Made by a program: the position numbers and the translations under genes. From Candidatus Omnitrophota bacterium (GTDB taxonomy: Bacteria > Omnitrophota > Gorgyraeia > JAHJTE01), in the NCBI GenBank assembly GCA_040753675.1, contig JBFMEB010000005.1:2303-66302 (forward strand): a DNA stretch of 64,000 nucleotides, written 5' to 3'. Shown here one piece after another: positions 13,055-58,930 of the stretch. Positions within the stretch are counted from its first letter, which is position 1, and every line of letters starts with the position of its first letter. The notes below the pieces were generated by a model. That model made no database searches, was not told where the DNA came from, and saw only the letters and a list, made by a program, of their open reading frames with translations.

Positions 13055-13055
13055 G

Positions 13056-18427: not shown

Positions 18428-18490
18428 CACGCGTCATAATGACGTTTAGTTAGATAAATTTTAGTCAATATCAAAAAGAGAAAGGTAGCA

Positions 18491-19513: not shown

Positions 19514-19530
19514 ACTTTTGGTAAGGTAAA

Positions 19531-26100: not shown

Positions 26101-26367
26101 ATGAACCCGCTGGAGGAAAGGATATACATATTCATAGTGGATTATCTAAGCAATATTTCGTCTATACCGTATCAAGATAAAAAAAGTATATTACAATACA
26201 GGTATTTGGATGTTGGGCATATTGATTCATTTGGCATTATAAACTTTATTATTACTCTGGAGGATAAGTTTGGTATTTCCTTGACAGCGCAAGATACAGA
26301 GTCGGATGAATTCAGAAGCATCGCAGGTCTCATAAAAACCATTACCAAAAAGCTTGAGAAAAGATGA
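26101..26367 (+). CDS. Acyl carrier protein-like (phosphopantetheine attachment Ser in GHIDSFGIINF)
   Basis: 88 aa, acidic with a four-helix pattern and a DSxx(I/L) motif. Sits next to an acyltransferase-like gene, with the AMP-ligase upstream. Confidence 0.65.
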   Translation: MNPLEERIYIFIVDYLSNISSIPYQDKKSILQYRYLDVGHIDSFGIINFIITLEDKFGISLTAQDTESDEFRSIAGLIKTITKKLEKR

Positions 26368-35935: not shown

Positions 35936-37420
35936 ATGAATGTATTACTTTTGAATATGCCTGTAGTGTTTAATTCCTGGCAAAACTTAGAAATGCCACT
36001 AGGAGTAATGTATATCGCCGCTCAGTTAGAAAGAGAAGGGTATCGGGTTAATATAAAAGATTATGAAGTTGAAAGGTTCGAAAAAAGCGAATTCGAAAAA
36101 CTTATTTCAAGATTTAAGCCAGATGTAATCGGAGTTTCATTCCGTTCTTCATCTTATGCTTCGGCAAAAAAAATTTGCTCTTTGATTAAAAAGATGAATC
36201 CGGATATAAAAATTGTTTTAGGGGGTCAGCATGCAAGCGCTTTTTCACAAGATACGTTGAAGGATATCCTTGCTGATTTTGTGGTTAGAGGAGAAGGCGA
36301 ATATATAATGGCCGAACTATTAGAGGCATTAAGTTTGAGAAAAAATTTTTCTGGAGTTGCTGGTATAACCTACCGCCATAACGGAGAAATCATAGAAAAT
36401 ATCTCTCGCGATAATATTGATAATTTAGACGGACTTGATTTTCCTGCCTGGCACTTAGTTCCCGTTGAGAAATACGTTACCGGATCGATATTAACCAGTA
36501 GAGGCTGTCCTTTTTCCTGTATATATTGCGATAAAGGTATATCTACAAGGAAAGTAAGATTCCGTTCTCCCGAAAATATATATAATGAAATTATTGCTTT
36601 TGAGAAAAAATATAAAAAAGGCAGGATATACTTTGTTGATGATTATTTCTTTTTGAATAAAGAAAGGCTACGGCAGATTTTCGCATTTGTTCTGGGAAAC
36701 GGGGGTTTGAAGATTAGGTGGGTCTGTCAGGCACGAGTCGATGGCGTTAATGATGTTAATTTTCTCCGGCTGGCTAAGAAAGCCGGCTGCGATATGATAA
36801 TCTATGGGGTTGAAACAGGCGATATACAGGAATTGGAATATATAAATAAAAAAGCTACGCTAGAAGATGCTGGCTGTGCGATAAAAATTACTAAAGACGC
36901 AGGTATTAAAACCAGAGTCAATTTTATGATTGGGTTTCCTATTTCTACTATCAAAATGGTAGGGAACTCAATTCGTTTTGCTAAAAAATTGAATGCTAAT
37001 CTTTATAGATTTTTTATAGTTTCTCCGCTACCGAATACGATTTTATGGGACAGGGTAGAAAAGATTTATCCGGATATTTCTCGGGTTGGCTGGGATAAGT
37101 TTGATTTTTATAGCGCAAGTTTTGACACCGCAGAAATCAGTAAAGGAGATTTGGTTAAATACGTTTTAGCCGCTTATATATATGTTTTAAAAAATAGAAC
37201 AATGAGAGAATTAAGTATTGAGTTAGTTTTCCGTTTAGCTAAACTGCTATACCTGTCTATTAGGGTCGGAAAAATGAGGGGAAACTTTTCTAATGCTTTT
37301 CCTGCCTGTGTTAATCTTTTTTTGGAGGGGTGGCAAGTCAGCCGGCATATAGAAAGAGGTAAGAAATTGTCTTATCTAAAAGAAGCTTTTGCCATAGCCA
37401 AGAGGTTTAAGAAGTGTTAA
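35936..37420 (+). CDS. B12-binding (class B) radical SAM enzyme
   Basis: N-terminal B12-binding-like domain (LGVMYIAAQLEREGY). rSAM motif LTSRGCPFSCIYCDKG. FMIGFP motif. 494 aa. Confidence 0.85.
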   Translation: MNVLLLNMPVVFNSWQNLEMPLGVMYIAAQLEREGYRVNIKDYEVERFEKSEFEKLISRFKPDVIGVSFRSSSYASAKKICSLIKKMNPDIKIVLGGQHASAFSQDTLKDILADFVVRGEGEYIMAELLEALSLRKNFSGVAGITYRHNGEIIENISRDNIDNLDGLDFPAWHLVPVEKYVTGSILTSRGCPFSCIYCDKGISTRKVRFRSPENIYNEIIAFEKKYKKGRIYFVDDYFFLNKERLRQIFAFVLGNGGLKIRWVCQARVDGVNDVNFLRLAKKAGCDMIIYGVETGDIQELEYINKKATLEDAGCAIKITKDAGIKTRVNFMIGFPISTIKMVGNSIRFAKKLNANLYRFFIVSPLPNTILWDRVEKIYPDISRVGWDKFDFYSASFDTAEISKGDLVKYVLAAYIYVLKNRTMRELSIELVFRLAKLLYLSIRVGKMRGNFSNAFPACVNLFLEGWQVSRHIERGKKLSYLKEAFAIAKRFKKC

Positions 37421-39811: not shown

Positions 39812-41224
39812 ATGAAAGTACTATTAATTTATCCTCCAAAATTTAATTTAGTAACACCGGCTTTACCTGAAGTTCAAGAGCGTGGATTAGGTTTTTTTCC
39901 TCCTTTAGGACTTATGTATATAGCCGCTCATCTAAAAAAATATACCCAACATAATGTAGAGATACTCGATGCAGATGTTGAACGGTTAAGTTATGAAGAA
40001 ATTAGAGATGAAGTTAAGATGAGGAAGCCGGACGTGGTTGGAATTACTGCCATGACTTATATGTTATACGATGCTATTTCTGTGGCTAGAGTTGTCAAGG
40101 AGGCAGATAAAAATATTCATATAAATTTAGGCGGACCACATGTAAATATTTACCCCCAAGAAACCATCAATTTTCCTTTTGTTGATTCAGTTACGTTAGG
40201 AGAAGGTGAAATTACCCTTACTGAATTCGTTGATGCTTTATCCCAGAAAGATTCTCTAAAACGAATAAAAGGGATAGTCTACAAAGAAAACGGTAATATA
40301 TTTTATAACGAACCTAGAGAATTGGTTAAAGATATTGATATCTTGCCTTATCCAGACAGAAGAATTATAAATTATAAGAAATATTATAACATAATGAGCA
40401 GAAATCAGATAAGTACAACTATGATTACTTCTCGAGGTTGCTCTAATAGATGCATTTTTTGTGATATACCTCATAAGACAGTGCGATATCGTTCAATTGA
40501 AAACGTTTTAGAAGAAGTAAAGGATTGTTTGAAGTTAGGGGTTAGAGAGATATATTTTTATGATGATACTTTCAATTTAGACAAAAGAAGGGTTATAGAA
40601 TTTTGTAGTAAGATTATTGAAGAAGGGTTTAAATTTTCTTGGACATTTAGAGGTAGGATTAAACCTTTAGATGAGGAGATGCTGGCTAAGTTAAGCAAAG
40701 CAGGCTGCCAGAGAATACAATTTGGCGTAGAGTCTGGAAATGAAGAGATATTAAAACTCATAAGGAAGAATATCACTTTAGAAGAAGTTAAACAAGCCTT
40801 TAGATTAACTAGAAAATTTGGAATCAGTTCATCGGCCTATTTTATGATTGGGTTTCCTAATGAAAGTAAGGAGATGGTTTTAGAGACTATTAAATTTGTC
40901 AATGAATTAAATCCAGACTATGTGGCCTTTTCAGTGACCCAGCCCTTTCCAAATACAGAACTTTATAAAATGGGACTAGAGAGGGGTATTTTTAAGACTG
41001 ATTTTTGGAAGGATTTCGCTTGTAATCCAAAGATTAATTTTGCTCCATTTTTGTGGGAAGAGACTTTGTCACGAGAACAAATGTATGAGTTGCAGAGAGT
41101 TGCGTTAAGGAGTTTCTATCTTAGGCCGAGATATTTAATAAAATCAGTTCTTGATTGTAGGAGTCCAAGAGAATTTTTAAGAAAATTATATGGCGGAATC
41201 AAATTATTTATAGGACTTTGTTAA
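39812..41224 (+). CDS. B12-binding (class B) radical SAM enzyme
   Basis: MKVLLIYPPKFNL..LGLMYIAAHLKK B12-like domain. ITSRGCSNRCIFCDIP. FMIGFPNE. 470 aa. A close paralog of 51271, 52693 and 54145. Confidence 0.85.
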   Translation: MKVLLIYPPKFNLVTPALPEVQERGLGFFPPLGLMYIAAHLKKYTQHNVEILDADVERLSYEEIRDEVKMRKPDVVGITAMTYMLYDAISVARVVKEADKNIHINLGGPHVNIYPQETINFPFVDSVTLGEGEITLTEFVDALSQKDSLKRIKGIVYKENGNIFYNEPRELVKDIDILPYPDRRIINYKKYYNIMSRNQISTTMITSRGCSNRCIFCDIPHKTVRYRSIENVLEEVKDCLKLGVREIYFYDDTFNLDKRRVIEFCSKIIEEGFKFSWTFRGRIKPLDEEMLAKLSKAGCQRIQFGVESGNEEILKLIRKNITLEEVKQAFRLTRKFGISSSAYFMIGFPNESKEMVLETIKFVNELNPDYVAFSVTQPFPNTELYKMGLERGIFKTDFWKDFACNPKINFAPFLWEETLSREQMYELQRVALRSFYLRPRYLIKSVLDCRSPREFLRKLYGGIKLFIGLC

Positions 41225-41327: not shown

Positions 41328-41945
41328 ATGAACAAAAAATTTTTAAATTTTCTGATTAGATTGCAAAAGAAACAGAACGAACTATTTGATTTTATCGTAT
41401 TTTTCAATGATCTGATTATGAAACTAATGTTAAATAGAAGACAAAAAGCACTATTAAAAAATTACTACTCAGAATTTACAATCTTAGAAAAAAAATATTA
41501 CATTTCCATATTAAGATTTAATAGGCTAGGCGAAATATATCAATTTTTTAACCTTTCTTTTAACAACAATTCTGCTAATTTCTTTTTGCCACATAAAACC
41601 GATTTAAAATCTTTGAAGAAAATTTTTAGAAGAATTTCTTATGTCCCCTTAGGAATATTTTATGAGGATACAATTATCGGGTATGCGTTAATTAGATTAT
41701 TTTTCCCTTGCGTTGCTTCCTATTTCATATCTATTGCCAATCAATGGCAAGGCAAGGGCATTGGTACTGCGGCATTAGAAAGGCAGTTAGCCTTAATAAA
41801 TATACTTAATTTCCAGCCCTATTCTATGGTAAACAAGAATAACCTAAAGTCTATAAAAATGCTTAAGAAATTAAACATTGAGTTTGGTAAAGATTTAGGG
41901 GCTTTTTTTGAGGTAAAGGATCGTGTTGGTGCTAATAAGAATTAG
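41328..41945 (+). CDS. GNAT family N-acetyltransferase (start uncertain)
   Basis: C-terminal half IGYALIRLF...IANQWQGKGIGTAALERQLALI with Q/RxxGxG/A acetyl-CoA motif. The N-terminal 80 aa are low-complexity, so the true start may be downstream. Confidence 0.55.
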   Translation: MNKKFLNFLIRLQKKQNELFDFIVFFNDLIMKLMLNRRQKALLKNYYSEFTILEKKYYISILRFNRLGEIYQFFNLSFNNNSANFFLPHKTDLKSLKKIFRRISYVPLGIFYEDTIIGYALIRLFFPCVASYFISIANQWQGKGIGTAALERQLALINILNFQPYSMVNKNNLKSIKMLKKLNIEFGKDLGAFFEVKDRVGANKN

Positions 41946-42956
41946 ATGAATCACGAAAAAAAATTATTGATAAGCGTAGATATGGATACATTTACTTCAT
42001 TATCAAATTATTATGGAGTTAAAGATGTTAAATATATAAAAGACGAAATATATGAAATCGCAATACCACGCATATTAGGATTATTTAAGAGGTTTAATAT
42101 AAAAGCAACCTTTTTTATCTGTAGTAAGGATTTTTCTGACAGAGAAGACGTTTGTTTCTGGATAAAAAAAATAAAAGAAAATGGCCATGAACTAGCAAAT
42201 CATTCTTTAAGCCATAGATATGGCATCTCGCTGTTGTCTTTTAAGCAGATCGAACGGGAGATAATCGGAAATCATAATTTAATAAAAGAATATTTTGATT
42301 GTGATTGTGTCGGATTCAGAGCTCCGGGTTATAACATAAGCACTGCAATTGTTAAGATTTTAGAAAAAAACGGTTACTTATACGACTCTTCATTATTTCC
42401 TACATCACTAACGCTTTTTTACAAGGTTTATCACTGTCTTTTGGTTATAAATAAAGAAAAAAAGGTTTACGATGGAATGGATAATATGTTTTCGTTTTTT
42501 TTGCCTGCACAGCCGTATTTGATAACCAGCGCTAATTATTGTCAGAAGGCTAGAGGCAAAAACGGTTCTTTTATCCTTGAGATACCTATTGCTACAAGCA
42601 GGTTTTTGAAACTCCCTTTTTATTTCAATTTCCATCTGCTTTTCAGTGAAAAGATGCTAAAGATAATTTTTAGCAAGGAAAATCGTCATTGCATAAATTA
42701 TCTGTTACACGCGGTAGATTTTGTTGATTATTATAAAGATAAGATAGACGAGAGATTTGCCTGCGTTGTGAATATAAAACGCCCGCTTGCAGAAAAAATG
42801 GAAAAAATCGACTTAATTATATCCAGTTTATTAAATAATCAATATAAAGTCATATTATTATCATCCTTTGCAAAAGAACTAATTAAATCAGGAAGAAGTT
42901 GCGGGTTGCACGTAGACGATGAAGAGAGCCAAAAATGGAGAATAAAAAAATATTAA
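41946..42956 (+). CDS. Polysaccharide deacetylase (CE4 / NodB homology domain)
   Basis: LLISVDMDT (Asp motif) and HELANHSLSH (His-His metal motif). 336 aa. Confidence 0.78.
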   Translation: MNHEKKLLISVDMDTFTSLSNYYGVKDVKYIKDEIYEIAIPRILGLFKRFNIKATFFICSKDFSDREDVCFWIKKIKENGHELANHSLSHRYGISLLSFKQIEREIIGNHNLIKEYFDCDCVGFRAPGYNISTAIVKILEKNGYLYDSSLFPTSLTLFYKVYHCLLVINKEKKVYDGMDNMFSFFLPAQPYLITSANYCQKARGKNGSFILEIPIATSRFLKLPFYFNFHLLFSEKMLKIIFSKENRHCINYLLHAVDFVDYYKDKIDERFACVVNIKRPLAEKMEKIDLIISSLLNNQYKVILLSSFAKELIKSGRSCGLHVDDEESQKWRIKKY

Positions 42957-43933
42957 TTACAGGTATAGCAGGATTCATCGGTTCTCATTTAGCCGATGAA
43001 TTATTAGCTAGGGGTTATAAGGTTTGCGGTATAGATAATTTATCAATGGGCAAGATTGAAAATATTGAACATAATTTAAGCAACCCTCAATTTGTTTTTA
43101 AGAAAATTGATGTTCGTAATTTAAGTCTACTTAAAGAGACTGCTTCTGATAGTGTTGCTATAGTACATCTAGCGGCTTTTAAAATTCCTCGTTATGGGAA
43201 TTCACTGGATACTTTGTTAATAAATACTAAAGGCACAGAAAATGTATTTGAAGTGGCAAAGGAAATTGGCTGTAAAGTTATCTTTGCTTCCACATCCGAT
43301 GTTTATGGAAAGAATCCTAATTTACCATTCAAAGAAGACAGCAATTTAGTTTATGGCCCTAGCAATATAGCTAGGTGGAGTTATGCAGTATCCAAGTTAT
43401 TTGATGAGCACATGGCATTTGGTTACCAAGAATCTTTTGGTATTCCTGTAGTTATCTTGAGATTCTTTGGTGCTTATGGACCACGACAACATCTTTCTTG
43501 GTGGGGTGGCCCGCAATCTGTTTTTATAAGCGCCATTTTAAAAGATGAAGAAATACAAATTCATGGCGACGGAACTCAAAGAAGGACTTTTATCTACATC
43601 GAGGATTTAATCTATGGGGTAATGGCGGCGATTGAAAGAAAAGATGCGATCGGAGAGATTTTTAATCTTGGCACTACCGAAGAGATAAGCATATTGGATT
43701 TGGCGCGTTTAATAAAAAAACTCTGTGATACCAAGGATGAGATAAGGCTTAAGTTTGTGCCGTATTCAAGCCTTTCAAGTAATTATGAGGACGTCAGAAG
43801 GCGGATTCCTGATATCGCAAAGGCGCAAAGTATTTTAGGTTTTCAGCCCAAGATTAATCTTCGGGAAGGAATTAAGATGACTATTGGGTGGCAACGAAAT
43901 ATATTGGGCAAGATACCAGTAACAGAAAAATAA
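42935..43933 (+). CDS. NAD-dependent epimerase/dehydratase (extended SDR, UDP-glucuronate decarboxylase / UDP-sugar 4-epimerase-like)
   Basis: ILITGIAGFIGSHLADELLARGYKV, catalytic YAVSK. 332 aa. Confidence 0.85.
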   Translation: MENKKILITGIAGFIGSHLADELLARGYKVCGIDNLSMGKIENIEHNLSNPQFVFKKIDVRNLSLLKETASDSVAIVHLAAFKIPRYGNSLDTLLINTKGTENVFEVAKEIGCKVIFASTSDVYGKNPNLPFKEDSNLVYGPSNIARWSYAVSKLFDEHMAFGYQESFGIPVVILRFFGAYGPRQHLSWWGGPQSVFISAILKDEEIQIHGDGTQRRTFIYIEDLIYGVMAAIERKDAIGEIFNLGTTEEISILDLARLIKKLCDTKDEIRLKFVPYSSLSSNYEDVRRRIPDIAKAQSILGFQPKINLREGIKMTIGWQRNILGKIPVTEK

Positions 43934-43951: not shown

Positions 43952-44548
43952 ATGAATGTTTATAATATAGATGGAAAATTAGTAGGGTTTAGGCCATTAG
44001 AAGAAAAGGACTTAAACGGCAATTGGTTTAATTGGTTTAATGATCCAGAGGTTACAAAATATCTCTCTCGAGGAGCTATACCGAATACAAAAGAACAGCA
44101 AAGATTGTTTCTTCAAAATAATATAGCGGATGCTACAAATCAGATTATCTTTGCCGTAGTAGATAAAAAGAGCAGAAGACATATTGGCGTAGCTTCGATA
44201 CGTAATATTGATTGGGTTCATCGCAATGGAGATATAGCTATAATTATTGGAGAAAAAGATTTCTGGCGAGGAGGGTATGCTTTAGAAATATATTATTTAA
44301 TTGTAAAATATAGCTTTGAAACTTTAAATTTACATAGATTAGTTACGGCAACTATAGCAGAAAATAAAATTTCTTTGAAATATTGTGAGATTTTGGGATT
44401 TAAAAATTTTGGAGTTGGCAAAGAAGTATTTTTTAAAAGCGGCCATTATCTTGATTGTGTATATTCAGAGCTTTTAGAGAACGATTGGAAAATGATCCAA
44501 GACGATAGCGAAGAAAAAAATAAACAACTTAAAAAGAGAAAGAAATGA
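43952..44548 (+). CDS. GNAT family N-acetyltransferase (RimL/Acetyltransf_3-like)
   Basis: 198 aa. WFNDPEVTKYL and IGVASIRNIDWVHRNGDIAIIIG pattern. Confidence 0.72.
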   Translation: MNVYNIDGKLVGFRPLEEKDLNGNWFNWFNDPEVTKYLSRGAIPNTKEQQRLFLQNNIADATNQIIFAVVDKKSRRHIGVASIRNIDWVHRNGDIAIIIGEKDFWRGGYALEIYYLIVKYSFETLNLHRLVTATIAENKISLKYCEILGFKNFGVGKEVFFKSGHYLDCVYSELLENDWKMIQDDSEEKNKQLKKRKK

Positions 44549-44961
44549 AAAAATATAGCTTTGAGGATATTAAGGTAGGTATGAGTCGCTCTTTACAATT
44601 TAATGTAACAGATAAACTTGTCGATGATTTTTGTAAATTGTCAGGTGATTATTCAGATATTCACTGCTCTGTAGATTTTGCGAATAAGCAAGGTTTTCCC
44701 AATAGAATAGCACATGGGATGCTCATAGGAGCTTTTATATCGAGACTTATTGGCATGGAGTTACCGGGTAAATTTGGATTATTACATAGTATGAATCTTA
44801 AATTTCATAAACCATGCTTTCCTGGAGATACTATTAAGATGACCGGAGTTGTTTTAGAGAAAATAAAAGCGGTAAAAACAATTATAGTCGGTGTAAGGGT
44901 TACTAAAAAAAATAGAATTTTGTTAATCTCAGGCACTGTACAAGCGGGGGTTATCAAATGA
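44545..44961 (+). CDS. MaoC-like (R)-specific enoyl-CoA/ACP hydratase, hot-dog fold
   Basis: 138 aa. IAHGMLIGAFISRLIG is the MaoC dehydratase signature. Confidence 0.8.
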   Translation: MKKYSFEDIKVGMSRSLQFNVTDKLVDDFCKLSGDYSDIHCSVDFANKQGFPNRIAHGMLIGAFISRLIGMELPGKFGLLHSMNLKFHKPCFPGDTIKMTGVVLEKIKAVKTIIVGVRVTKKNRILLISGTVQAGVIK

Positions 44962-45713
44962 TTAATAGAAAAAAAATAATATTAATTACGGGTGGCAGTC
45001 GTGGTATTGGCTCAGAAATTGCTAAGACTATAGCGAATAAAGAAAGGATTATTTATATTAACTATTACAAAAATAGAACTAAAGCAGAACAAACAGCGAG
45101 CGTTATCAACAAGAAAGGATTTAGCGCCAAAATAATACAAGCTGATGTGTCGAATGAAAAAGATGTCAAGATGATGATAAACTCGATTATAAAAGAAAGT
45201 AAATATATTGATGTTTTAATAAATAATGCAACTCCTACTTTGAGCCAAAAGAATTTTTTTAATTTATCTTGGAAAGATTTTCAAAAACAGCTTGATGTAT
45301 TAGTAAAAGGAGCCTTTTATTGTTCAAATAAAGCTTCTGAAGTTATGAAACAACAAAAAAGCGGACATATTGTTACACTTCTTTCTTCTTGCGTATTTGG
45401 ATTGCCGCCTGCTAATTTGGCACACTATGTTATAGCTAAATATGGACTTATGGGTTTGTGTAAAAGCATGGCAGTGGAGTTGGTAAGATTTGGCATCAGG
45501 GTGAATATGGTTTCGCCCTTTATTACTGTGGGTACGGATTTGACAGCTAAATTATTCCCTGAACGTCTATTGGAAATAATACAGCAACAGCATCCTTTAA
45601 AGCGGTTAGCTACTATTAAAGACACAGCAGAGATAGTGAATTTTTTAATTTCTGAAAAAGCCAGTTATCTTAACTCTGTAAATATTCCAATTACAGGGGG
45701 GGTTGTGGGTTAA
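44958..45713 (+). CDS. Short-chain dehydrogenase/reductase (FabG-like 3-oxoacyl-ACP reductase family)
   Basis: ILITGGSRGIGSEIAK, NNA, YVIAKYGLMGLCKS (YxxxK). 251 aa. Confidence 0.85.
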   Translation: MINRKKIILITGGSRGIGSEIAKTIANKERIIYINYYKNRTKAEQTASVINKKGFSAKIIQADVSNEKDVKMMINSIIKESKYIDVLINNATPTLSQKNFFNLSWKDFQKQLDVLVKGAFYCSNKASEVMKQQKSGHIVTLLSSCVFGLPPANLAHYVIAKYGLMGLCKSMAVELVRFGIRVNMVSPFITVGTDLTAKLFPERLLEIIQQQHPLKRLATIKDTAEIVNFLISEKASYLNSVNIPITGGVVG

Positions 45714-47587
45714 TGCCAAAGAACATTTTGAAACATCGTATTAAAAACGCTATTGAAAAAAAAGATTATAAAAAAGCTTATAATCTAACTGTGCAATTTT
45801 TGGATGAAGATTTACACATAAGCGAACTTATAATGTTAGATAAGTTCTGGCAGAAGAATATTAATAGAGCCTCAGAAGAACTTATGCTCAAACCTCTTCA
45901 TTTAGCCGTCACAGGTAGCTATACTTTAGATACGATTGTTTCGGTAATACGTCTTTTTCTTTTAAAAGATGGATATCGTGCTGATATTTATCAGTCAGAT
46001 TATGGAGTTTTTCAACAAGAGATTATTAATAAAGATAGTGCACTTTATGCTTTTAACCCCCATATCATACTATTGTTTATTGGTTATCGTGATGTAAAAG
46101 ACTTCCCTTCTCCTGGCATGTCTTTTGAAGAAATAAATAAAATGATAGAAATAGAGACATCTAGATATAGCCGTTTATGGCAACTACTTTCAGAAAGATT
46201 AACTTGTCATATTATCCAAAACAACTTTGATGTACCTTTGGAGAGAACTTTTGGGGAATTGGAAACAAAATATCCTTGGACTAAAAGTAATTATCTTAGG
46301 CGACTAAATTTGAGATTAGGAGAGGTTGCGCCATCGTTTGTTTCTATTTTAGATATTGAGCATTTATCAGCAAAGATAGGCAAAGAATGCTGGTTTGACG
46401 AACGTTTTTATTATCATTCTAAACAAGGCATTTCTTTTGATTGCATTTCAGCTTATGTAAAAGTTCTTGTAGCTTTAGTAAAGGCGACAATAGGCGATTC
46501 CAAGAAATGTTTAGTTTTTGATTTAGATAATACTCTGTGGGGTGGGGTTATTGGTGAAGTCGGATTGGAAAATATTGAATTTGGTATAGGTTCTGCGCAA
46601 GGAGAAGCATATCTTGCCTTTGCTAAATATATAAAATCACTTAAAGATAAGGGAGTTATTCTTGCGGTTTGTAGTAAGAACGATGAAAAAATAGCCAAGG
46701 AACCATTCAGACTGCATCCAGAGATGCCTATCAAGTTAGAAGATATCGCTTGTTTTATGGCCAATTGGGAAGATAAGGCTACTAATTTAAGGAGAATCGC
46801 CAAGGAATTGAATATTGGTTTAGATTCCATAGTTTTTTTAGATGATGATATTGTTGAAAGAAAGATGGTTAGAGCATTTTGCCCTGAGGTTACCGTGGTA
46901 GAGCTGAAGGAAGACCCCTCATTGCAACCCCGCTTTTTAGATAGCAAGTATTATTTTGAGACTATTTCTTATTCAAAAGAGGACGCTGATAGAACTAATT
47001 TTTACTTAACAAGTAAAAGACTGCAAGAAATACGAGCCGATTATTCCGATTTGCCTTCTTTTTTGAAATCTTTGAAAATGGTGGGAAAAATTAGCCGATT
47101 TAATGAATCTGATTTAAAGAGAATCGTTCAACTTATTAATAAAACTAATCAGTTTAATCTTATGACAAGACGTTATACAGAAATGCAGGTTAGGAACTTT
47201 ATGAAAAATAATAATTGTATTACTTTATCTGTTAGACTGAAGGATAAATACAGTGATTATGGTTTGATTTCTGTTTTTATTGGAAATATTTCTGAAAAAA
47301 ATTTAATTATCGATACTTGGGTTATGAGCTGTAGGGTATTTTCTAGGACAACCGAATATTTTTTATTTAATTATATACTTTATGATGCAATAAAACGTGG
47401 GATAAATAAAATTTTAGGAACATATATTCCCACAAAGAAAAATCTTGCAGTAAAAGATTTATTCCAGCAATTAAGTTTTAATTTGGATTCTAAATCTGAA
47501 AATGGGACTACTAACTGGTCTTTAAGAATTAATCAAGACTTACCTCTAAAAGAAACTTATATTAAAGCAGCTACCTTAGATGAGTGA
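45713..47587 (+). CDS. FkbH-like protein (HAD-IIIC phosphatase domain; glyceryl-ACP-forming enzyme family) with N-terminal extension
   Basis: LVFDLDNTLWGGVIGEVGLENIEFGI is the FkbH/HAD-IIIC hallmark (DxDxT plus LWGG). A catalytic Cys-type C-terminal domain follows (IDTWVMSCRVFSR). 624 aa. Confidence 0.8.
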   Translation: MPKNILKHRIKNAIEKKDYKKAYNLTVQFLDEDLHISELIMLDKFWQKNINRASEELMLKPLHLAVTGSYTLDTIVSVIRLFLLKDGYRADIYQSDYGVFQQEIINKDSALYAFNPHIILLFIGYRDVKDFPSPGMSFEEINKMIEIETSRYSRLWQLLSERLTCHIIQNNFDVPLERTFGELETKYPWTKSNYLRRLNLRLGEVAPSFVSILDIEHLSAKIGKECWFDERFYYHSKQGISFDCISAYVKVLVALVKATIGDSKKCLVFDLDNTLWGGVIGEVGLENIEFGIGSAQGEAYLAFAKYIKSLKDKGVILAVCSKNDEKIAKEPFRLHPEMPIKLEDIACFMANWEDKATNLRRIAKELNIGLDSIVFLDDDIVERKMVRAFCPEVTVVELKEDPSLQPRFLDSKYYFETISYSKEDADRTNFYLTSKRLQEIRADYSDLPSFLKSLKMVGKISRFNESDLKRIVQLINKTNQFNLMTRRYTEMQVRNFMKNNNCITLSVRLKDKYSDYGLISVFIGNISEKNLIIDTWVMSCRVFSRTTEYFLFNYILYDAIKRGINKILGTYIPTKKNLAVKDLFQQLSFNLDSKSENGTTNWSLRINQDLPLKETYIKAATLDE

Positions 47588-47825
47588 TATTAAAAAAAGA
47601 CTACAGGATATATTTCGCTATGTGTTTGAGAAGAAAAATCTCAAAATTTTTGATGAGATGACAGCTAATGATATAGAGGAGTGGGATTCCCTTATGCACA
47701 TTAATTTGATCATTGCTATCGAGAAAGAATTTTCTATTAAATTTAAACTGGGGGAACTCGTAGAGTTGGGAAATGTTGGCGATACTATACAACTAATTGA
47801 GAAAAAGCTAATGAAACAAAATTAA
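47580..47825 (+). CDS. Acyl carrier protein (DSL phosphopantetheinylation motif)
   Basis: 81 aa with EEWDSLMHINLIIAIEKEF. Overlaps the FkbH stop by 8 nt, suggesting translational coupling. Confidence 0.75.
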   Translation: MSDIKKRLQDIFRYVFEKKNLKIFDEMTANDIEEWDSLMHINLIIAIEKEFSIKFKLGELVELGNVGDTIQLIEKKLMKQN

Positions 47826-51270: not shown

Positions 51271-52686
51271 ATGAAAGTACTTTTAATAAATCCACCGGAT
51301 AGGAATATGATAATCTCCGATAATCCATCTTTTATAGATGAAGAGAGAGGGGTTAATCCTCCTTTAGGTCTTTTATATCTGGCTGCTTATTTAAAGCAGA
51401 ACAGTAATCATGAGGTAGAGGTTCTTGATACGCTTGTTGAGAAAATAGGCTATGAAAGATTAGGTGAAATTATCGGCCAGAAATCTCCGGATATCGTAGG
51501 TATAACAACTACGACATTTACTTTAATTGACGTTATGAAAACCGCAAAGATAGTAAAGTCTGTTTCTGATGATATAAAGCTGGTCTTAGGTGGGCCTCAT
51601 CCAAGTATCTACCCACGAGAGTCGGCATCTCTGAAAGAAATTGATTTTGTAATTGCCGGCGAGGGAGAGAGGGTATTTCTCGCATTGATTAATAATATAA
51701 ATAATAAGGCTGTCCTTTCGACCATAAACGGGCTCTTTTTCAAAAATAACGGCAAGGTCATTGGAAATGCGCAGTGTGACTTTATAGACGATTTGGATAA
51801 TCTTCCCTTTCCCGCAAGGAGTCTTACGCCCTACAGAAAATATAACTCTATCATTGCTAGGAGAAATCCTATAACCACAATGTTTACCTCCAGAGGTTGT
51901 CCGTTTAATTGTTCATTTTGTGACAGGCCACACATGGGTAGGCACTTTCGGGCGAGGTCATATAAAGGCGTTGTAGACGAAATGCAGGAATGTGTAGGAA
52001 TGGGCATAAAAGAGATATTTATCTACGATGATACTTTTACCGTAGATAGAAAAAGAGTCTTAGATATATGCGAGGAAATAATCAGGAGGAATTTAGATTT
52101 TAGCTGGGATATAAGGACAAGGGTTGATACAGTAGATGCAGAGATGCTAGTAAAGTTGAAAAAAGCTGGCTGTGAGAGGATTCACTATGGAGTAGAGGCA
52201 GGTACCGATAAGATACTTAAGATTCTAAATAAAGGAACAAGTGTAAAGAAGATAAAGGATAGCTTTAGATTGACTAAAAAAGTAGGAATTTCTACCTTGG
52301 CCTATTTTATGATTGGTTCACCTGAGGAGAAAAAAGAGGATATATTGTCTACAATAAATCTTATGAAAGAATTGAATCCCGATTACGTCCATATTACCAT
52401 AACAACCCCTTTTCCTTCAACAGAACTTTACAGAAAGGCTATGTTAGAAGGTGTTATAAAAAGCGATTATTGGAGAGAGTTTGCTAACAATCCAGATCAG
52501 AAGATATCTTCAATATATTGGGAAAAGGAATTTACAAGAGAAGAGCTGCTCGATTTATTAAGTTTCGCTTATAAGAGTTTCTATGGAAGACCAAGTTTTA
52601 TATTATCTAATCTTATTAAGATAAGATCATTTGTTGATTTTAAAAGAAAAGCCAAGGCAGGTTTTAAGATTCTAAGTGCTAAATAG
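51271..52686 (+). CDS. B12-binding (class B) radical SAM enzyme
   Basis: MKVLLINPP..LGLLYLAAYLKQ. FTSRGCPFNCSFCDRP. FMIGSPEE. 471 aa. Confidence 0.85.
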   Translation: MKVLLINPPDRNMIISDNPSFIDEERGVNPPLGLLYLAAYLKQNSNHEVEVLDTLVEKIGYERLGEIIGQKSPDIVGITTTTFTLIDVMKTAKIVKSVSDDIKLVLGGPHPSIYPRESASLKEIDFVIAGEGERVFLALINNINNKAVLSTINGLFFKNNGKVIGNAQCDFIDDLDNLPFPARSLTPYRKYNSIIARRNPITTMFTSRGCPFNCSFCDRPHMGRHFRARSYKGVVDEMQECVGMGIKEIFIYDDTFTVDRKRVLDICEEIIRRNLDFSWDIRTRVDTVDAEMLVKLKKAGCERIHYGVEAGTDKILKILNKGTSVKKIKDSFRLTKKVGISTLAYFMIGSPEEKKEDILSTINLMKELNPDYVHITITTPFPSTELYRKAMLEGVIKSDYWREFANNPDQKISSIYWEKEFTREELLDLLSFAYKSFYGRPSFILSNLIKIRSFVDFKRKAKAGFKILSAK

Positions 52687-52692
52687 AAAGAT

Positions 52693-54114
52693 ATGAAGAT
52701 ATTATTATTAAACCCCCCCTTTACGGAATACGGCGGCCTGGAAGGCCATGGCGGAAAAGCAGCGCCTTTAAATCTAGCATATTTAGCTGCATTTCTAAGA
52801 GCAAAGCGTCCACAAGATAAGATATCCATACTGGATTGTGAGGGTCTGGAGCTTTCTTATAATGATATAGCAATTGAACTAAAAAGCATACAACCGGATA
52901 TAGTTGGTATTACTGCTCCTACGCCTGCCTATGTCCAGGTGAAGGAGGTTTCAAAGATTATTAAAGAAATTAGTAAAGATATAAAAGTTATATTAGGAGG
53001 GCCTCATCCTACAGCATTTCCATTAGAGACTGTTAAAGAAGAGTTTGTTGATTTTTCAGTATACGGCGAAGGAGAGTTAACTCTTTTGGACTTAGTTAAT
53101 GCCATCGATAAAAAAATGGATTTTAGTTCAGTAAAAGGCATAGCTTTTAAGGATATTTATGGTGATGCTCATTTGACAGAATTGCGCCCATTAATTCAGG
53201 ATTTAGATTCGATTCCCTTCCCAGCAAGAGAACTTTTGCCACTAGAGATATACTTTCCACCTCCAACAAAACGGGTCAGTAATAAAAAAAGTGGAAATAT
53301 GATTACCTCCAGAGGTTGTCCGTATCAGTGTACTTATTGTATGGCGCGAATTATATGGAATAAAAAAGTACGTTATAGAAGCGTTAAAAATGTTGTAGAT
53401 GAGATCGAAGAATGTGTTAAGAATTTTGGAATAGGTGAATTTAATTTTCATGATGAATTATTTACTTTAAAAAAAGAACGCACAATTGAGATTTGTAGGG
53501 AAATAAGACGCAGAAAGTTAGACATAGCCTGGGTATGTATGGTTCGAGTTGATTATGTCTGGGAAGATGTTTTAAGAGAGATGAAATTAGCGGGTTGTAA
53601 GAAAATAATGTTTGGATTTGAATCCGGCTCACAAGAAATTTTAGACCTGATGAAGAAAAATGTTAAAGTAGAACAGGCTTATGAGGCTGTTAAGTTAGTA
53701 AAACGTTGTGGAATTAAGACCGCCGGAAATTTTATGTTTGGCAATATTGGAGAGACTGAAGAGACTATAAGGAAGAGTATCAATCTGGCAAAAAGATTAA
53801 ATACAGATACCGTGGCATTTTTTATTGCCAGTCCATATCCGGGTACTGAATTTTATAATATTGCCAAGGAAAGTGGATATTTTAGGCAAGGCCTAGACTG
53901 GAAAGATTTTACATTAGTCTCTGATAATGCAAGACCACCTTTAGACCTTCCCGGATTGAGTTCTGAAAGAATAGCCTATTGGCAAAAGAAAGCATATAAA
54001 GAATATTATTTTAGGATGGATTACATATTTCAGAAATTATTTGGCATACGTTCAATTATTGATGTTAATAATCTATTTTATGGGGTCAGACTTTTATTTA
54101 AATTGCAAAAATAA
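52693..54114 (+). CDS. B12-binding (class B) radical SAM enzyme
   Basis: MKILLLNPPF..LNLAYLAAFLRA. ITSRGCPYQCTYCMAR. 473 aa. Confidence 0.85.
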   Translation: MKILLLNPPFTEYGGLEGHGGKAAPLNLAYLAAFLRAKRPQDKISILDCEGLELSYNDIAIELKSIQPDIVGITAPTPAYVQVKEVSKIIKEISKDIKVILGGPHPTAFPLETVKEEFVDFSVYGEGELTLLDLVNAIDKKMDFSSVKGIAFKDIYGDAHLTELRPLIQDLDSIPFPARELLPLEIYFPPPTKRVSNKKSGNMITSRGCPYQCTYCMARIIWNKKVRYRSVKNVVDEIEECVKNFGIGEFNFHDELFTLKKERTIEICREIRRRKLDIAWVCMVRVDYVWEDVLREMKLAGCKKIMFGFESGSQEILDLMKKNVKVEQAYEAVKLVKRCGIKTAGNFMFGNIGETEETIRKSINLAKRLNTDTVAFFIASPYPGTEFYNIAKESGYFRQGLDWKDFTLVSDNARPPLDLPGLSSERIAYWQKKAYKEYYFRMDYIFQKLFGIRSIIDVNNLFYGVRLLFKLQK

Positions 54115-54144
54115 TTTTTTAAGATTAAGGCTTATTCCTAAAAA

Positions 54145-55572
54145 ATGAGTTGTCGAATTGCATTTATAGTGCCTCCTTCGCAAGCCATATCATTAAAATT
54201 CGTTTCCTATCAGCAGCCTATAAACATGGCTTATTTAGCTGCTGAGGTTATCAAGGCTGGCCATAATGCCGTGATATGGGATTATGGAGTTGAAGAGTAT
54301 AATTTAGAAGACATTATTGATAGAATTAATGGTTTTAAGCCTCAGATAATAGGTATCCATTGCAAAACTTTTAGCATTATTCAGGGTAATGAACTGGCAA
54401 GGGAAATTAAGAAAAGTTACCCCCAGATATTAATCCTGGTGGGGGGGCCTCATTCTACGGCACTGCCGGAAGAGACATTGAGAGAGTTTGAGAATTTCGA
54501 TGCTGTGGCTATAGGAGAAGGTGAGAAAACAATCGTTGATTTATGTGAACATATAGCAATAGGTAAATCGCTAGAGGGTGTAAATGGTATAGCAATACGC
54601 AACGGGATAAAGATAATACGCACTTCACAGAGAGAATTAATAGCTGATTTAAATGCACTTTCATATCCTGCTAGACAATTGCTACCAGAAAATTTATATA
54701 ATAAACGCCATGCTTCAAGGGGGATTTCTTCTCGTGGACGAAAAGTAACAGAGATCTTTACTTCGCGGGGTTGTCCAGGGCAATGTATTTTTTGTGCGGC
54801 ACGTCTTTCCTATGGAAATTGTGTTCGATTTAGAAGTTTAGATAATGTATTAGGAGAGGTAGACGAATGTATAAATAAATTCTCCTATGATCACATAGTT
54901 ATTCAAGATGATACCTTTACCCTAAATCATGAAAGAGTATACGGGTTGCTTGAAGGATTTCGAAAACTCGGCGTTAAATCATGGAGTTGCGATACAAGGG
55001 TCGATGCTGTAGATAAAGATCTAATTAGAGAGATGGCGCGTTCAAACTGCAAAAAAGTTTCCTTAGGGGTAGAATCGGGAAGCGAGAGAATTTTAAAGCT
55101 GATAAAGAAGAATATTAGTCTACAGCAGGTACGCAACGCGGTTAGATGGGCAAGGTCCTCTGGAATCCAGTTGGTTGAATGCACTTTTATCATTGGTAGT
55201 CATCCCGATGAGACAAATGAAGATGTTTCTCTTACCTGGAAGATGATAAAAGAACTTAGTCCGGATATAATCTCTGTTTCAGTAATAGTTCCCTATCCTG
55301 GTACAGAAGTTTACAGTTTAATGAAAGAGAGAGGCTATATTGATAATCAAGACTGGGAAAACTTTCAATTGATAGGCAGTAAATTAAGCTGGCATACAAA
55401 ATATTTTTCTTCAGAGGAATTGCTTCGGCTGCAGCGGCAATTTATTAATAACTATTATTTTAATTTCAAATATATTATGCGCTCCTTAAGAAGAGCCAAG
55501 AGTATCAAAGATATCAGCTATCTCTTCAAAACAGGACTGGGCGTCTTAGGGTTTCTCTTTAAGAAAGATTGA
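54145..55572 (+). CDS. B12-binding (class B) radical SAM enzyme
   Basis: IAFIVPP..INMAYLAAEVIKAG. FTSRGCPGQCIFCAAR. FIIGSHPDET. 475 aa. Confidence 0.85.
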   Translation: MSCRIAFIVPPSQAISLKFVSYQQPINMAYLAAEVIKAGHNAVIWDYGVEEYNLEDIIDRINGFKPQIIGIHCKTFSIIQGNELAREIKKSYPQILILVGGPHSTALPEETLREFENFDAVAIGEGEKTIVDLCEHIAIGKSLEGVNGIAIRNGIKIIRTSQRELIADLNALSYPARQLLPENLYNKRHASRGISSRGRKVTEIFTSRGCPGQCIFCAARLSYGNCVRFRSLDNVLGEVDECINKFSYDHIVIQDDTFTLNHERVYGLLEGFRKLGVKSWSCDTRVDAVDKDLIREMARSNCKKVSLGVESGSERILKLIKKNISLQQVRNAVRWARSSGIQLVECTFIIGSHPDETNEDVSLTWKMIKELSPDIISVSVIVPYPGTEVYSLMKERGYIDNQDWENFQLIGSKLSWHTKYFSSEELLRLQRQFINNYYFNFKYIMRSLRRAKSIKDISYLFKTGLGVLGFLFKKD

Positions 55573-57193: not shown

Positions 57194-58930
57194 ATGAAGA
57201 GAACATTTAATTATAATATAATAGTTTGTATTCTTTTTATTGGTTTCTTATTTGCCTTTCCGCGAATTTTCTTAGGAGAGGATTCTTATGTAACTATTCA
57301 TGATAATTTAGATATAGGTTCTATTTGGTTTATAAGGCATATTGAAAAAAGTAATATTTTTAATCCCCAGTCTTTGCTTGATAATACTATGAATGGTCTA
57401 CCGCGGCCGTTTCTAACCACCGGTTCTGCTGTGATGTTGGCCCTTTTTCTGTTATTCAAACCGTTTACCGCCTATGTAATAAATGAGCTATTGGTGCATT
57501 TGCTTGCATTCATCGGGATGTATTTATTGCTTAAGAGGCATGTTTTAAAATCGAAGGATGAGGATTTCATAGCCTTTGGTGTATCAGTTTGTTTTGCGGC
57601 ATTGCCATTTTATTCGCTTTTTGGCTTATCCGTTGCCGGCCAGCCGTTATTACTTTATGCATTTTTAAATTTAATAAATAATAAAAAGCACATTTTAGAT
57701 TTCATGATAATTTTTATTTTTCCTTTTTATGCGCCTTTATATTATGCCGGATTTGCTATTCTTATAGCGCTAGGAATTTTATTTATCTTCTATTACATAA
57801 GTGAGAGAAAGGCTAATAAACTATTCTTATCTGGGCTAATACTTTTCTCAATTAGCTATGTGTTTGTCGAATTCAATTTTATTAAAATGGCTATCTTCGA
57901 TAATAATTTGGCTATTCATAGGATGGATTGGAATCCTCTTTATTTAGCTAGAAACTATAAAGAGGCGATGAAGCTAGGATTCAAGAATTTTTTATTCGGA
58001 GATTATAATGCACCGAGTAAACATACTCCTATTATATTAGTCTCTTTTTTGAGTATCCTAACGGTATTTCTCGCTAACAGAAAAGCTCAATTAGGAAATA
58101 CTGCGAAATCAATCTTTATTTTATTGCTTATAGCTTTCAGTATATCGCTATTCCATGGTCTTTACCATTGGGAAGGATTAGTTCTCCTAAAGGAGAAAAT
58201 CGACCTTTTGAGGGTAACACAGTTTAATAGGTTCTTTTACCTAGAGACTATTCTATGGTACATTGTTTTTGCATTATCTCTTTTTTCATTATTGCATTTG
58301 GAACATGGAAAATCTTTTGTAAGAATTTTGATTATATCTCAGTTAATTTTTATTTTTACCAGCAAATTTGAATCGAAAAATGAATTGAGTATTAATTATA
58401 AGATCATTTTTGAAAGAGCCTTCGGTAAAGAGAAAAACAGGCTTACCTATGGGAAGTTTTTTTCAGAAACTTTATTTTCTGATATTGATGAGTACCTTGG
58501 CCTACCTAAGAAGACATACCGCCTGGTCAGTATTGGTATCCATCCGAGTATCCTTCAGTATAACGGTTTTTATACTCTGGACAGTTATCAGAATGTTTAT
58601 CCTCTGATATATAAACATCGTTTCAGAGAAATCATTGCAAAGGAGTTAGATAAGAGCACTCAATTGAAAGATTACTTCGATTATTGGGGTAATAGATGCT
58701 ATATATTTGTAGCCGAGCTTGAAGATGAAGGGTTTACAATCACGAAAGAGAGGAATATAAAAATCCATAATCTTGAATTAAATACCAACGCCTTAAAGAA
58801 ACTAGGTGGAAGGTTTATACTTTCAGCGGTACAGATTCTAAACGCCAAGGATAACAACTTGGCGCTATTAAAGATATTTGAACGCGATGATTCTCCTTGG
58901 CAGATTTATTTGTATAAAGTGGATAGTTAG
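57194..58930 (+). CDS. Large integral membrane protein of unknown function (about 10 TM N-domain plus about 180-aa soluble C-domain). Possible polymerase or GT-C-like.
   Basis: 578 aa, strongly hydrophobic for the first about 390 aa. No recognisable catalytic motif. Confidence 0.5.
   Translation: MKRTFNYNIIVCILFIGFLFAFPRIFLGEDSYVTIHDNLDIGSIWFIRHIEKSNIFNPQSLLDNTMNGLPRPFLTTGSAVMLALFLLFKPFTAYVINELLVHLLAFIGMYLLLKRHVLKSKDEDFIAFGVSVCFAALPFYSLFGLSVAGQPLLLYAFLNLINNKKHILDFMIIFIFPFYAPLYYAGFAILIALGILFIFYYISERKANKLFLSGLILFSISYVFVEFNFIKMAIFDNNLAIHRMDWNPLYLARNYKEAMKLGFKNFLFGDYNAPSKHTPIILVSFLSILTVFLANRKAQLGNTAKSIFILLLIAFSISLFHGLYHWEGLVLLKEKIDLLRVTQFNRFFYLETILWYIVFALSLFSLLHLEHGKSFVRILIISQLIFIFTSKFESKNELSINYKIIFERAFGKEKNRLTYGKFFSETLFSDIDEYLGLPKKTYRLVSIGIHPSILQYNGFYTLDSYQNVYPLIYKHRFREIIAKELDKSTQLKDYFDYWGNRCYIFVAELEDEGFTITKERNIKIHNLELNTNALKKLGGRFILSAVQILNAKDNNLALLKIFERDDSPWQIYLYKVDS

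Follow-up and report, generated by a model that had tools for sequence, protein, structure and literature searches.

We analyzed a 64-kb stretch of DNA from a Candidatus Omnitrophota bacterium (contig JBFMEB010000005.1), referred to here as the window. Embedded in a nonulosonic acid locus is a run of five genes, the cassette, that encodes an FkbH-like enzyme together with an acyl carrier protein (ACP), a MaoC-type dehydratase, a short-chain dehydrogenase/reductase (SDR), and a GNAT-family acyltransferase:

43952-44548, + strand: GNAT N-acyltransferase (198 aa), which opens the coupled unit; Acetyltransf_3, 87.2 bits
44545-44961, + strand: MaoC-type single hot-dog dehydratase (138 aa); PF01575, 60.8 bits, E 1.3e-16
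44958-45713, + strand: FabG-like classical SDR (251 aa); adh_short_C2, 158 bits
45713-47587, + strand: FkbH-like three-domain enzyme (624 aa); TIGR01686, 282.9 bits
47580-47825, + strand: dedicated ACP (81 aa); weak match to PP-binding, 21.6 bits against a cut-off of 20.8

Adjacent genes overlap by ATGA at the GNAT/MaoC and MaoC/SDR junctions, by TAATG at the SDR/FkbH junction, and by 8 nucleotides at the FkbH/ACP junction, and the genes from 43952 to 47825 form a single translationally coupled unit. A first-pass annotation of this DNA had described a four-gene cassette at 44545-47825, in which FkbH is translationally coupled to a discrete ACP. Its MaoC, FabG-like SDR, FkbH, and ACP open reading frames (ORFs) all lie exactly there on the + strand, the 8-nucleotide overlap bears out the coupling, and both motifs that it quoted, the HAD-IIIC motif LVFDLDNTLWGG (FkbH residues 267-278) and EEWDSL (ACP), were found. 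Those four genes are coupled, but a fifth member had been missed: the GNAT gene overlaps the MaoC start as the other junctions do, and the unit therefore consists of five genes rather than four.

By its sequence, the FkbH-like protein is a member of the FkbH family. The hidden Markov model check that the first-pass annotation had proposed gave a TIGR01686 score above the curated cut-off of 146.65 bits; the HAD-IIIC model TIGR01681 was matched at 63.7 bits (cut-off, 35.75), and FkbH_N (PF21211) was matched as well. A structure model placed an SGNH-like N-domain before a HAD fold and a GNAT-fold C-domain bearing Cys540. The HAD phosphatase motifs (DxDxT, S/T, K, and DD) are kept as D270/D272/T274, S321, K355, and D377/D378, which argues for a phosphorylated substrate. 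D270, D272, T274, S321, K322, N323, K355, D377, N479, and Q480 are invariant in 30 homologues, as are S539, C540, R541, and R545 of an SCRxxxR motif that includes Cys540. In work on OzmB, the cysteine of the C-domain was reportedly assigned the role of carrier of the glyceryl intermediate.

Two comparators were aligned with the window protein. One is a 359-aa HAD-IIIC protein from a zwittermicin-type nonribosomal peptide synthetase (NRPS)/polyketide synthase (PKS) cluster on a Bacillus thuringiensis plasmid, which we take to be ZmaN from its cluster context; ZmaN makes glyceryl-ACP for hydroxymalonyl-ACP. The other, from locus L088, is a 624-aa FkbH from a Streptomyces plasmid, encoded in an operon of FabH-like, FkbH, ACP, E2-like, and alpha/beta hydrolase genes. 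Every HAD motif and the SCR cysteine of the window protein aligned in both, at 28-29% identity. Absence of the C-domain cysteine had been named by the first-pass annotation as evidence that would count against a glyceryl-ACP pathway; Cys540 is present, invariant in the homologues, aligned in both comparators, and located in a domain modeled with a GNAT fold. Since FkbH_N is common to the window protein and the L088 FkbH, the long form represents the tetronate-type architecture; the L088 operon fits the five-gene tetronate "glycerate-utilisation operon" (PMC7489565).

The dehydratase and reductase retain the residues expected for catalysis. The nearest solved structures to the MaoC protein were the 3-hydroxyacyl-thioester dehydratase HTD2 (3IR3) and the (R)-specific enoyl-coenzyme A (CoA) hydratase PhaJ, and its catalytic pair Asp35/His40 is kept and aligns with the GD..H motif of both. 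For the SDR, the best NCBIfam matches were FabG models (TIGR01830, 170 bits, below the equivalog cut-off), the top PDB matches were FabG structures, and the TGxxxGIG and YxxxK motifs are both kept. ElxO (4QEC) was also matched, at 94.7 bits; ElxO is a FabG-like SDR that converts pyruvoyl to lactyl. Among 136 ACPs adjacent to FkbH, Trp35, Asp36, and Ser37 are conserved in 100%, 95%, and 100%, respectively, and Ser37 is the predicted phosphopantetheine attachment site.

The nearest solved structures to the cassette GNAT were diamine/spermidine N-acetyltransferases. Its homologues at 57-63% identity occur in the same GNAT-MaoC-SDR order, and those at 36-41% identity lie in pseudaminic acid (Pse) loci without FkbH. 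Within the latter set, a relative at 41% identity directly follows PseB-PseC, the classical PseH position, and another lies between a cytidylyltransferase gene and GFO/DegT/NeuB genes. These contexts suggest that the cassette GNAT is probably a PseH-type transferase that moves an acyl group from acyl-ACP to an amino sugar.

The five-gene order GNAT (Acetyltransf_3)-MaoC-SDR-FkbH-ACP recurred identically on three metagenome contigs (L004-L006), whose FkbH proteins are 50-56% identical to that of the window by protein search; a fourth contig, L007, begins within the cassette. The first-pass annotation had suggested looking for the cassette near DegT or GNAT genes in other genomes, and the recurrence on L004-L006, in nonulosonic acid loci, matches that expectation. 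In the close relatives, the cassette always lies among NeuB, DegT, PIG-L, and LegB-like genes. Upstream are genes for NeuB, a small GNAT, a PIG-L deacetylase, and a B12 radical S-adenosylmethionine (radical-SAM) protein, and downstream are LegB-like, DegT, PglD-NeuB, and UDP-GlcNAc 2-epimerase genes. Because nonulosonic acid genes flank the relatives' cassette on both sides, those contigs hold two nonulosonic acid pathways. A LegB-like gene flanks the cassette in L004-L007, as it does in the window. The metagenome scan returned nothing above 44% identity; the 50-56% set from the protein search comprises the only close relatives.

A search with the GNAT added two more contigs with GNAT-MaoC-SDR at the same position; on one of them no FkbH gene was called, and on the other the gene is truncated where the contig ends. 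On L170, no gene was called at the FkbH position between the SDR and the LegB-like gene (9784-11602), where there may be a frameshift or pseudogene. A conserved protein of ~525 aa without a Pfam match is encoded a short way upstream of the cassette in the closest relatives, adjacent to the B12 radical-SAM gene (L004:5139-6716, L005:6593-8173, and L006:6623-8212); no homologue of it was detected in the window.

Taken together, these data make it likely that the cassette supplies acyl groups for glycan acylation through FkbH and ACP. Membership in the FkbH family implies loading of a glyceryl unit from 1,3-bisphosphoglycerate onto the ACP. The HAD domain would remove the 3-phosphate, and the glyceryl group would pass via Cys540 of the GNAT-fold domain to phosphopantetheine at Ser37 of the ACP, giving glyceryl-ACP. 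MaoC would then eliminate the C3 hydroxyl to yield 2-hydroxyacryloyl-ACP, which would tautomerize to pyruvoyl-ACP, and the FabG-like SDR would reduce the 2-keto group to give lactyl-ACP (2-hydroxypropanoyl-ACP). The PseH-type GNAT would take lactyl-ACP instead of acetyl-CoA and N-acylate the UDP-4-amino-4,6-dideoxyhexose that PseB and PseC produce, at the 4-amino group that later becomes N7 of Pse. The product of the locus would be a 7-N-lactyl, or closely related glycerate-derived, Pse. A dehydratase, a ketoreductase, FkbH, and an ACP are coupled and co-conserved in the cassette, as in a PKS lactate loading module. From family membership, protein anatomy, and gene context, we judge the whole route, from glyceryl- via pyruvoyl- to lactyl-ACP and on to N-acylation of the Pse precursor, somewhat more probable than its failure; the identity of the acyl group as lactyl is an evenly balanced call. 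The first-pass annotation had predicted a glyceroyl, lactyl, or hydroxyacyl substituent built on ACP and transferred to a sugar. Gene coupling and context support that prediction, and our analysis narrows it toward lactyl and an amine acceptor, with the chemistry remaining putative.

The sugar locus around the cassette begins at about 7-9 kb and continues to the window's end, with all genes on the + strand. It holds several glycosyltransferase genes (one of them, a GT2, downstream of the cassette), a flippase gene, two deacetylase genes, and seven radical-SAM genes, along with PseB, PseC, PseF, PseG, PseI, and PseH-like genes, in keeping with the glycan context noted in the first pass. The genes most relevant to the acceptor sugar are as follows:

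12080-13054, + strand: PseB-like, an early Pse gene
13056-14207, + strand: PseC-like DegT, an early Pse gene
between the PseC-like and PseF-like genes, within 12080-17244, + strand: GFO oxidoreductase
15187-17244, + strand: PseF-like cytidylyltransferase (CTP_transf_3) fused to a class III aminotransferase, ~683 aa
from 28214 (late block, 28214-30613), + strand: PseG-like; PseG is the best match, at 127 bits, below the equivalog cut-off
from 29139, + strand: PseI/NeuB-like; NeuB (333 bits) and PseI (305 bits) are the best matches, below the equivalog cut-offs
from 30146, + strand: PseH-like GNAT, 155 aa; PseH is the best match, at 50.9 bits, below the equivalog cut-off
33481-35355, + strand: candidate nonulosonic acid transferase; BFO_1060-family domain, 96.4 bits, below the cut-off of 200
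41328-41945, + strand: second GNAT, in the immediate upstream context of the cassette
41946-42956, + strand: polysaccharide deacetylase, in the same upstream context
42935-43933, + strand: LegB-like NDP-sugar 4,6-dehydratase/epimerase, immediately upstream of the cassette

BFO_1060 and Tanf_01245 are transferases of legionaminic acid/Pse derivatives in Tannerella forsythia (PMC5420450). In the gene content of the PseB-PseC region of the window, no GNAT follows PseC. The 155-aa GNAT at 30146, beside PseI, was set aside as the cassette transferase because it lies 14 kb from the cassette and is remotely similar to the cassette GNAT at most. The chances that the acceptor is the amine of the Pse N7 precursor are about even.

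Other features of the locus were noted in passing. The CTP_transf_3/class III aminotransferase fusion recurs in related nonulosonic acid loci (L170:1-1086 and L172:10827-12875). The radical-SAM genes, unusually many for a sugar locus, lie at 22205-24961, 35936-37420, 39812-41224, and 51271-55572; five of the seven encode full-length B12-binding HpnJ/BchE-like proteins, three of them in tandem at 51271-55572, and ORFs 23445-24566 and 24563-24961 both match a B12 radical-SAM query, which may reflect a split or frameshifted gene. An AAC(3)-like N-acetyltransferase fused to DUF4910/DUF2172 (M28-peptidase-like; 26364-28217) and a stand-alone DUF4910 protein (30649-32013) bracket the PseG-PseI-GNAT genes. 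A type II dehydroquinase, an ApbA/ketopantoate-reductase-like protein, and an AMP-binding ligase are encoded at 17981-21111 within the glycan locus and could constitute a second, independent acyl-substituent pathway. The gene for a full-length DUF6044 protein (57194-58930, 564 bits) precedes one for a flippase-like-domain protein (58949-59908).

To place the cassette in its wider family, ORF calling and phmmer were applied to the 80 loci of a genome scan (several phyla, 35-44% identity) and the 80 loci of a metagenome scan. The main counts are limited to loci flanked by 3 kb or more on each side (60 genome and 21 metagenome loci) and to same-strand genes within 3 kb. An ACP gene adjoined FkbH in 50/60 genome and 20/21 metagenome loci (83-95%), and an MBOAT gene was nearby in 28/60 (~47%) and 10/21, respectively. 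A dehydratase, either MaoC or fused, was present in 14/60 and 12/21; combinations of dehydratase and reductase were found in 11/60 and 6/21, and those of dehydratase and B12 radical-SAM in 3/60 and 6/21. The dehydratase was never the sole tailoring gene (0/60 and 0/21). With a 4-kb limit on either strand, dehydratase plus reductase occurred in 45 of 166 loci and dehydratase plus radical-SAM in 17 of 166. On a Niveispirillum plasmid, MaoC and SDR are one fused protein of 482 aa beside FkbH-ACP (L001:11973-13421). Gene order differed by lineage (FkbH-ACP-MaoC-SDR in Firmicutes, for example), and L144 has the GNAT with the cassette genes in another order; such variability suggests that shared function explains the co-occurrence better than inherited synteny.

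The ~160 more distant relatives adjoin ACP, MBOAT, GNAT, or sugar genes. No PKS or NRPS was found among the seven large flanking ORFs (at least 1,000 aa) scanned in these loci, which encode three sensor kinases, a glutamate synthase, a TPR protein, a pyridine-nucleotide oxidoreductase, and one protein without a match. The first-pass annotation had held that a polyketide cluster context in relatives would speak against its proposal. None was seen in these ~160 loci, and a polyketide setting was rejected, with the closest relatives all in nonulosonic acid loci.

Fusions of FkbH and ACP to acyltransferases were also recovered, in the arrangements ACP-FkbH-TPR-WcbI, WcbI-TPR-FkbH, and hexapeptide transferase-ACP-FkbH, as was an FkbH-methyltransferase fusion (all among P0181, P0205, P0234, and P0245). 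Some FkbH-like proteins of 730-755 aa carry an N-terminal extension of ~150 aa of unassigned family; the idea that these are fused MaoC domains was unsupported by phmmer or Pfam. FkbH-ACP lies beside MBOAT in L002 (Sinorhizobium meliloti pSymB), L009, L015, L016, L034, L037, L042, and ~30 further loci, and by analogy such loci suggest trans-membrane O-acylation of polysaccharide with a glycerate-derived group; L002 also encodes a 409-aa protein that could not be annotated. A MaoC-B12 radical-SAM-FkbH-ACP variant, with the radical-SAM gene replacing the reductase, was seen in L022, L027, L030, L078, L092, L098, L099, and L102-L104, and further in L109, L115, L118, L124, L134, L136, and L142. 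This variant suggests methylation or other radical chemistry on an ACP-bound C3 unit. In L022 (Coxiellaceae), a Pse locus directly precedes it, and FabH-like and GNAT genes are also present. An ACP-FkbH-like pair with the HAD motif DCDN lies on a 56-kb mobilizable plasmid of Clostridium perfringens (L089), next to genes for a nucleotidyltransferase, a VOC-family protein, ABC transporters, and a radical-SAM protein.

Several observations weigh against the proposed lactyl pathway or parts of it. The FkbH-like protein is just 28-29% identical to the PKS-type comparators, and our literature search found no assay of any FkbH-like protein from a glycan locus. By sequence, the SDR and MaoC proteins resemble ordinary 3-oxoacyl and 3-hydroxyacyl enzymes; they are not closely homologous to PKS dehydratase (DH) and ketoreductase (KR) domains, so the lactyl route rests on analogy. 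Many related loci carry a B12 radical-SAM gene in place of the SDR gene, indicating that the chemistry after dehydration is not uniform across the family, and because the window has seven radical-SAM genes, it may be more complex there too. The cassette GNAT scored 47.1 bits against the PseH model TIGR03585, below the equivalog cut-off of 93.1, the nearest solved GNATs use acetyl-CoA, and the use of an acyl-ACP donor is read from gene adjacency alone. The cassette lies ~14 kb from PseI, beside the LegB-like dehydratase and deacetylase genes, and another amino sugar is therefore a possible acceptor; together with the second GNAT, these neighbors could mean that other amino positions or sugars are modified. 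To our knowledge, no N-lactyl nonulosonic acid has been reported.

With the same loading by FkbH and ACP, the group delivered might instead be glyceroyl or another glycerate-derived acyl, with MaoC and SDR tailoring or epimerizing it rather than deoxygenating it; 3-hydroxypyruvoyl, inverted L-glyceroyl, and a C-methylated 2-oxo/2-hydroxy acid made via a B12 radical-SAM protein of the locus are options. About half of the sampled FkbH-ACP loci have neither a dehydratase nor a reductase and presumably deliver plain glyceryl, so that glyceroyl transfer is probably the base state of the family, and the variants with dehydratase and B12 radical-SAM show that other outcomes exist. As the first-pass annotation had said, glyceroyl Pse occurs in nature: N-glyceroyl Pse (Pse5Am7Gra) has been reported, as has 2,3-di-O-methylglyceroyl Pse, and the genetics of both are unassigned (PMC5378307). 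In Campylobacter jejuni, moreover, cj1302 of the flagellin glycosylation locus has an FkbH domain, according to a one-line mention (PMC7099621). In the cassette, however, FkbH is coupled in translation to the dehydratase and the reductase; in relatives a dehydratase never comes without a further tailoring gene, and dehydratase and reductase are even fused to each other. The simplest step of a beta-hydroxyacyl dehydratase on glyceryl-ACP would be loss of the C3 hydroxyl, which would destroy the glyceroyl group. We regard a glyceroyl-type product of this cassette as unlikely. The FabG matches of the SDR and the HTD2 and PhaJ matches of MaoC would suit a route resembling fatty acid synthesis that yields a 3-hydroxyacyl or enoyl group; in it the SDR would be a true 3-oxoacyl-ACP reductase, MaoC a 3-hydroxyacyl-ACP dehydratase/hydratase, and the FkbH-like protein the loader of a non-glycerate acyl unit. 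3-Hydroxybutyryl, a possible product of such a route, is widespread on nonulosonic acids and, among their unusual N-acyl groups, the most common. Yet no ketosynthase (KS), FabH, or acyltransferase that could make a 3-oxoacyl-ACP is encoded in or beside the cassette, FabH is rare beside relatives (1/60 genome loci), and the complete set of HAD phosphatase motifs points to a phosphorylated substrate. We consider a fatty-acid-like route highly unlikely.

The acyl-ACP might also be real but serve O-acylation or a different transferase, leaving the adjacent GNAT as an ordinary acetyl-CoA-dependent PseH. The frequent MBOAT partners in related genome loci and the fusions to WcbI and hexapeptide acyltransferases indicate that the acyl-ACP feeds several kinds of transferase, and GNAT relatives occur in Pse loci without any cassette. 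Across the whole 64-kb window, however, neither MBOAT nor WcbI homologues were detected, and the GNAT gene overlaps the MaoC start and accompanies the cassette in every close relative, as well as, reordered, in L144; a separate transferase is quite improbable here. All biochemically characterized FkbH enzymes serve PKS or tetronate pathways (PMC7489565, PMC4552970), which would favor precursor supply for a polyketide, tetronate, or methoxymalonyl-type metabolite by a cassette that sits in a sugar locus by chance. Near the cassette there is no KS, PKS, FabH, FkbK/FkbI-type dehydrogenase, FkbG-type O-methyltransferase, or Agg4/Agg5-type gene, and the family survey gave no PKS or NRPS among the large ORFs scanned and placed the closest relatives in nonulosonic acid loci. 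A role in secondary metabolism is very improbable. The lactyl pathway feeding a PseH-type GNAT is the reading that we prefer.

Nonulosonic acids such as pseudaminic and legionaminic acids on flagella, S-layers, capsules, and lipopolysaccharides differ mainly in their N-acyl groups, and these groups shape immune recognition and phage binding. The cassette offers a testable link from a glycolytic intermediate to sugar acylation via a carrier protein, and it suggests candidate genes in pathogens, such as cj1302 in C. jejuni. Apart from the mention of cj1302, our literature search found no description of a role for FkbH/HAD-IIIC proteins in polysaccharide, O-antigen, capsule, or flagellin glycosylation loci. 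Friedrich et al. (2017) called the genetic basis of the N-glyceroyl group of T. forsythia Pse5Am7Gra "a major challenge," with no clear homologues identifiable for the glyceric acid modification of C. jejuni (PMC5378307). Counted as representative clusters, FkbH-like proteins number 14,118 at E <= 1e-3 and 5,809 at E <= 1e-30, and most carry no label beyond "HAD-IIIC family phosphatase." This large reservoir may be misfiled; the sampled members lie in envelope and glycan loci and not in antibiotic clusters. We tentatively propose, at slightly short of an even chance, that FkbH-ACP, with or without a dehydratase and a reductase or B12 radical-SAM protein, is a widespread general system for decorating surface glycans with glycerate-derived acyl groups. 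If so, these groups would include glyceroyl, lactyl, and perhaps methylated variants; PseH-type GNATs would carry out N-acylation of nucleotide sugars, and MBOATs, WcbI, and hexapeptide transferases would carry out Dlt-like O-acylation elsewhere. Most FkbH family members would then serve glycans rather than polyketides, and the cassette would represent the missing genetic route to nonulosonic acids of the N-glyceroyl and N-lactyl types.

Among characterized systems, methoxymalonyl-ACP and tetronate pathways share the FkbH family itself with the cassette. Like FkbH, OzmB, ZmaN, Tmn16, and Mad7/Mad14, the cassette enzyme bears the TIGR01686 signature, HAD motifs, and SCR cysteine and is encoded next to an ACP of its own. 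Its partners differ, being MaoC, SDR, and GNAT rather than FkbK/FkbI/FkbG or FabH/Agg4/Agg5. The unit has no acyl-CoA dehydrogenase, 3-hydroxyacyl-CoA dehydrogenase, or O-methyltransferase of a methoxymalonyl-ACP set, and the FabH-like protein, Agg4-type acyltransferase, and Agg5-type hydrolase of a tetronate set are absent from the window and present in the Streptomyces operon L088.

Systems that charge glycan-directed carriers by other means offer a second comparison. The O antigen of Vibrio cholerae O1 (rfbK-rfbO) depends on ACP for N-acylation of perosamine with 3-deoxy-L-glycero-tetronate. That system resembles the cassette in placing an unusual hydroxy-acyl group on an ACP encoded in a glycan locus and then passing it to a sugar amine, but it uses adenylating, ligase-type loading and other tailoring, with no FkbH and no glycolytic acyl-phosphate. 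In the Dlt system (DltA-DltC-DltB-DltD), a dedicated loader charges a small carrier, and the acyl group is passed to an MBOAT, an architecture that resembles about half of the FkbH-ACP loci in other genomes. Unlike Dlt, the window has a cytoplasmic GNAT and no MBOAT, and the loader is FkbH rather than an adenylation enzyme. The cassette GNAT is like PseH in its GNAT fold, its Acetyltransf_3 match, and its relatives at 36-41% identity in the PseH slot or in Pse loci, and unlike PseH in its score below the cut-off, its place in an acyl-ACP operon, and its proposed acyl-ACP rather than acetyl-CoA donor.

The closest chemical parallel is the lactate-starter loading module of certain trans-AT PKSs. 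The loading module of BryA (bryostatin) has DH, KR, FkbH, and ACP domains, and that of FR901464/spliceostatin is GAT-ACP-DH*-KR*. For FR901464, He et al. in 2014 reportedly showed that DH* turns glyceryl-ACP into pyruvoyl-ACP, from which KR* then makes L-lactyl-ACP. The cassette has the same four activities and the same predicted chemistry, with the activities in the order of the BryA domains. FkbH-containing PKS loading modules are listed in the BiGMeC table as converting 1,3-bisphosphoglycerate and ACP to D-lactate-ACP (software paper, PMC7901079). A loading module is followed by a KS, and no KS or PKS was found in the window or in the scanned ORFs beside relatives. The loading modules are domains of megasynthases with PKS-type DH and KR, whereas the cassette consists, for these activities, of four separate small proteins with a single hot-dog MaoC and a FabG-type SDR. 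The product of a loading module primes a polyketide, while that of the cassette would be handed to a GNAT for attachment to an amino sugar. The component families and the PKS precedent for the chemistry are already known; the novelty lies in bringing these enzymes together as discrete proteins that supply a PseH-type GNAT within a nonulosonic acid locus.

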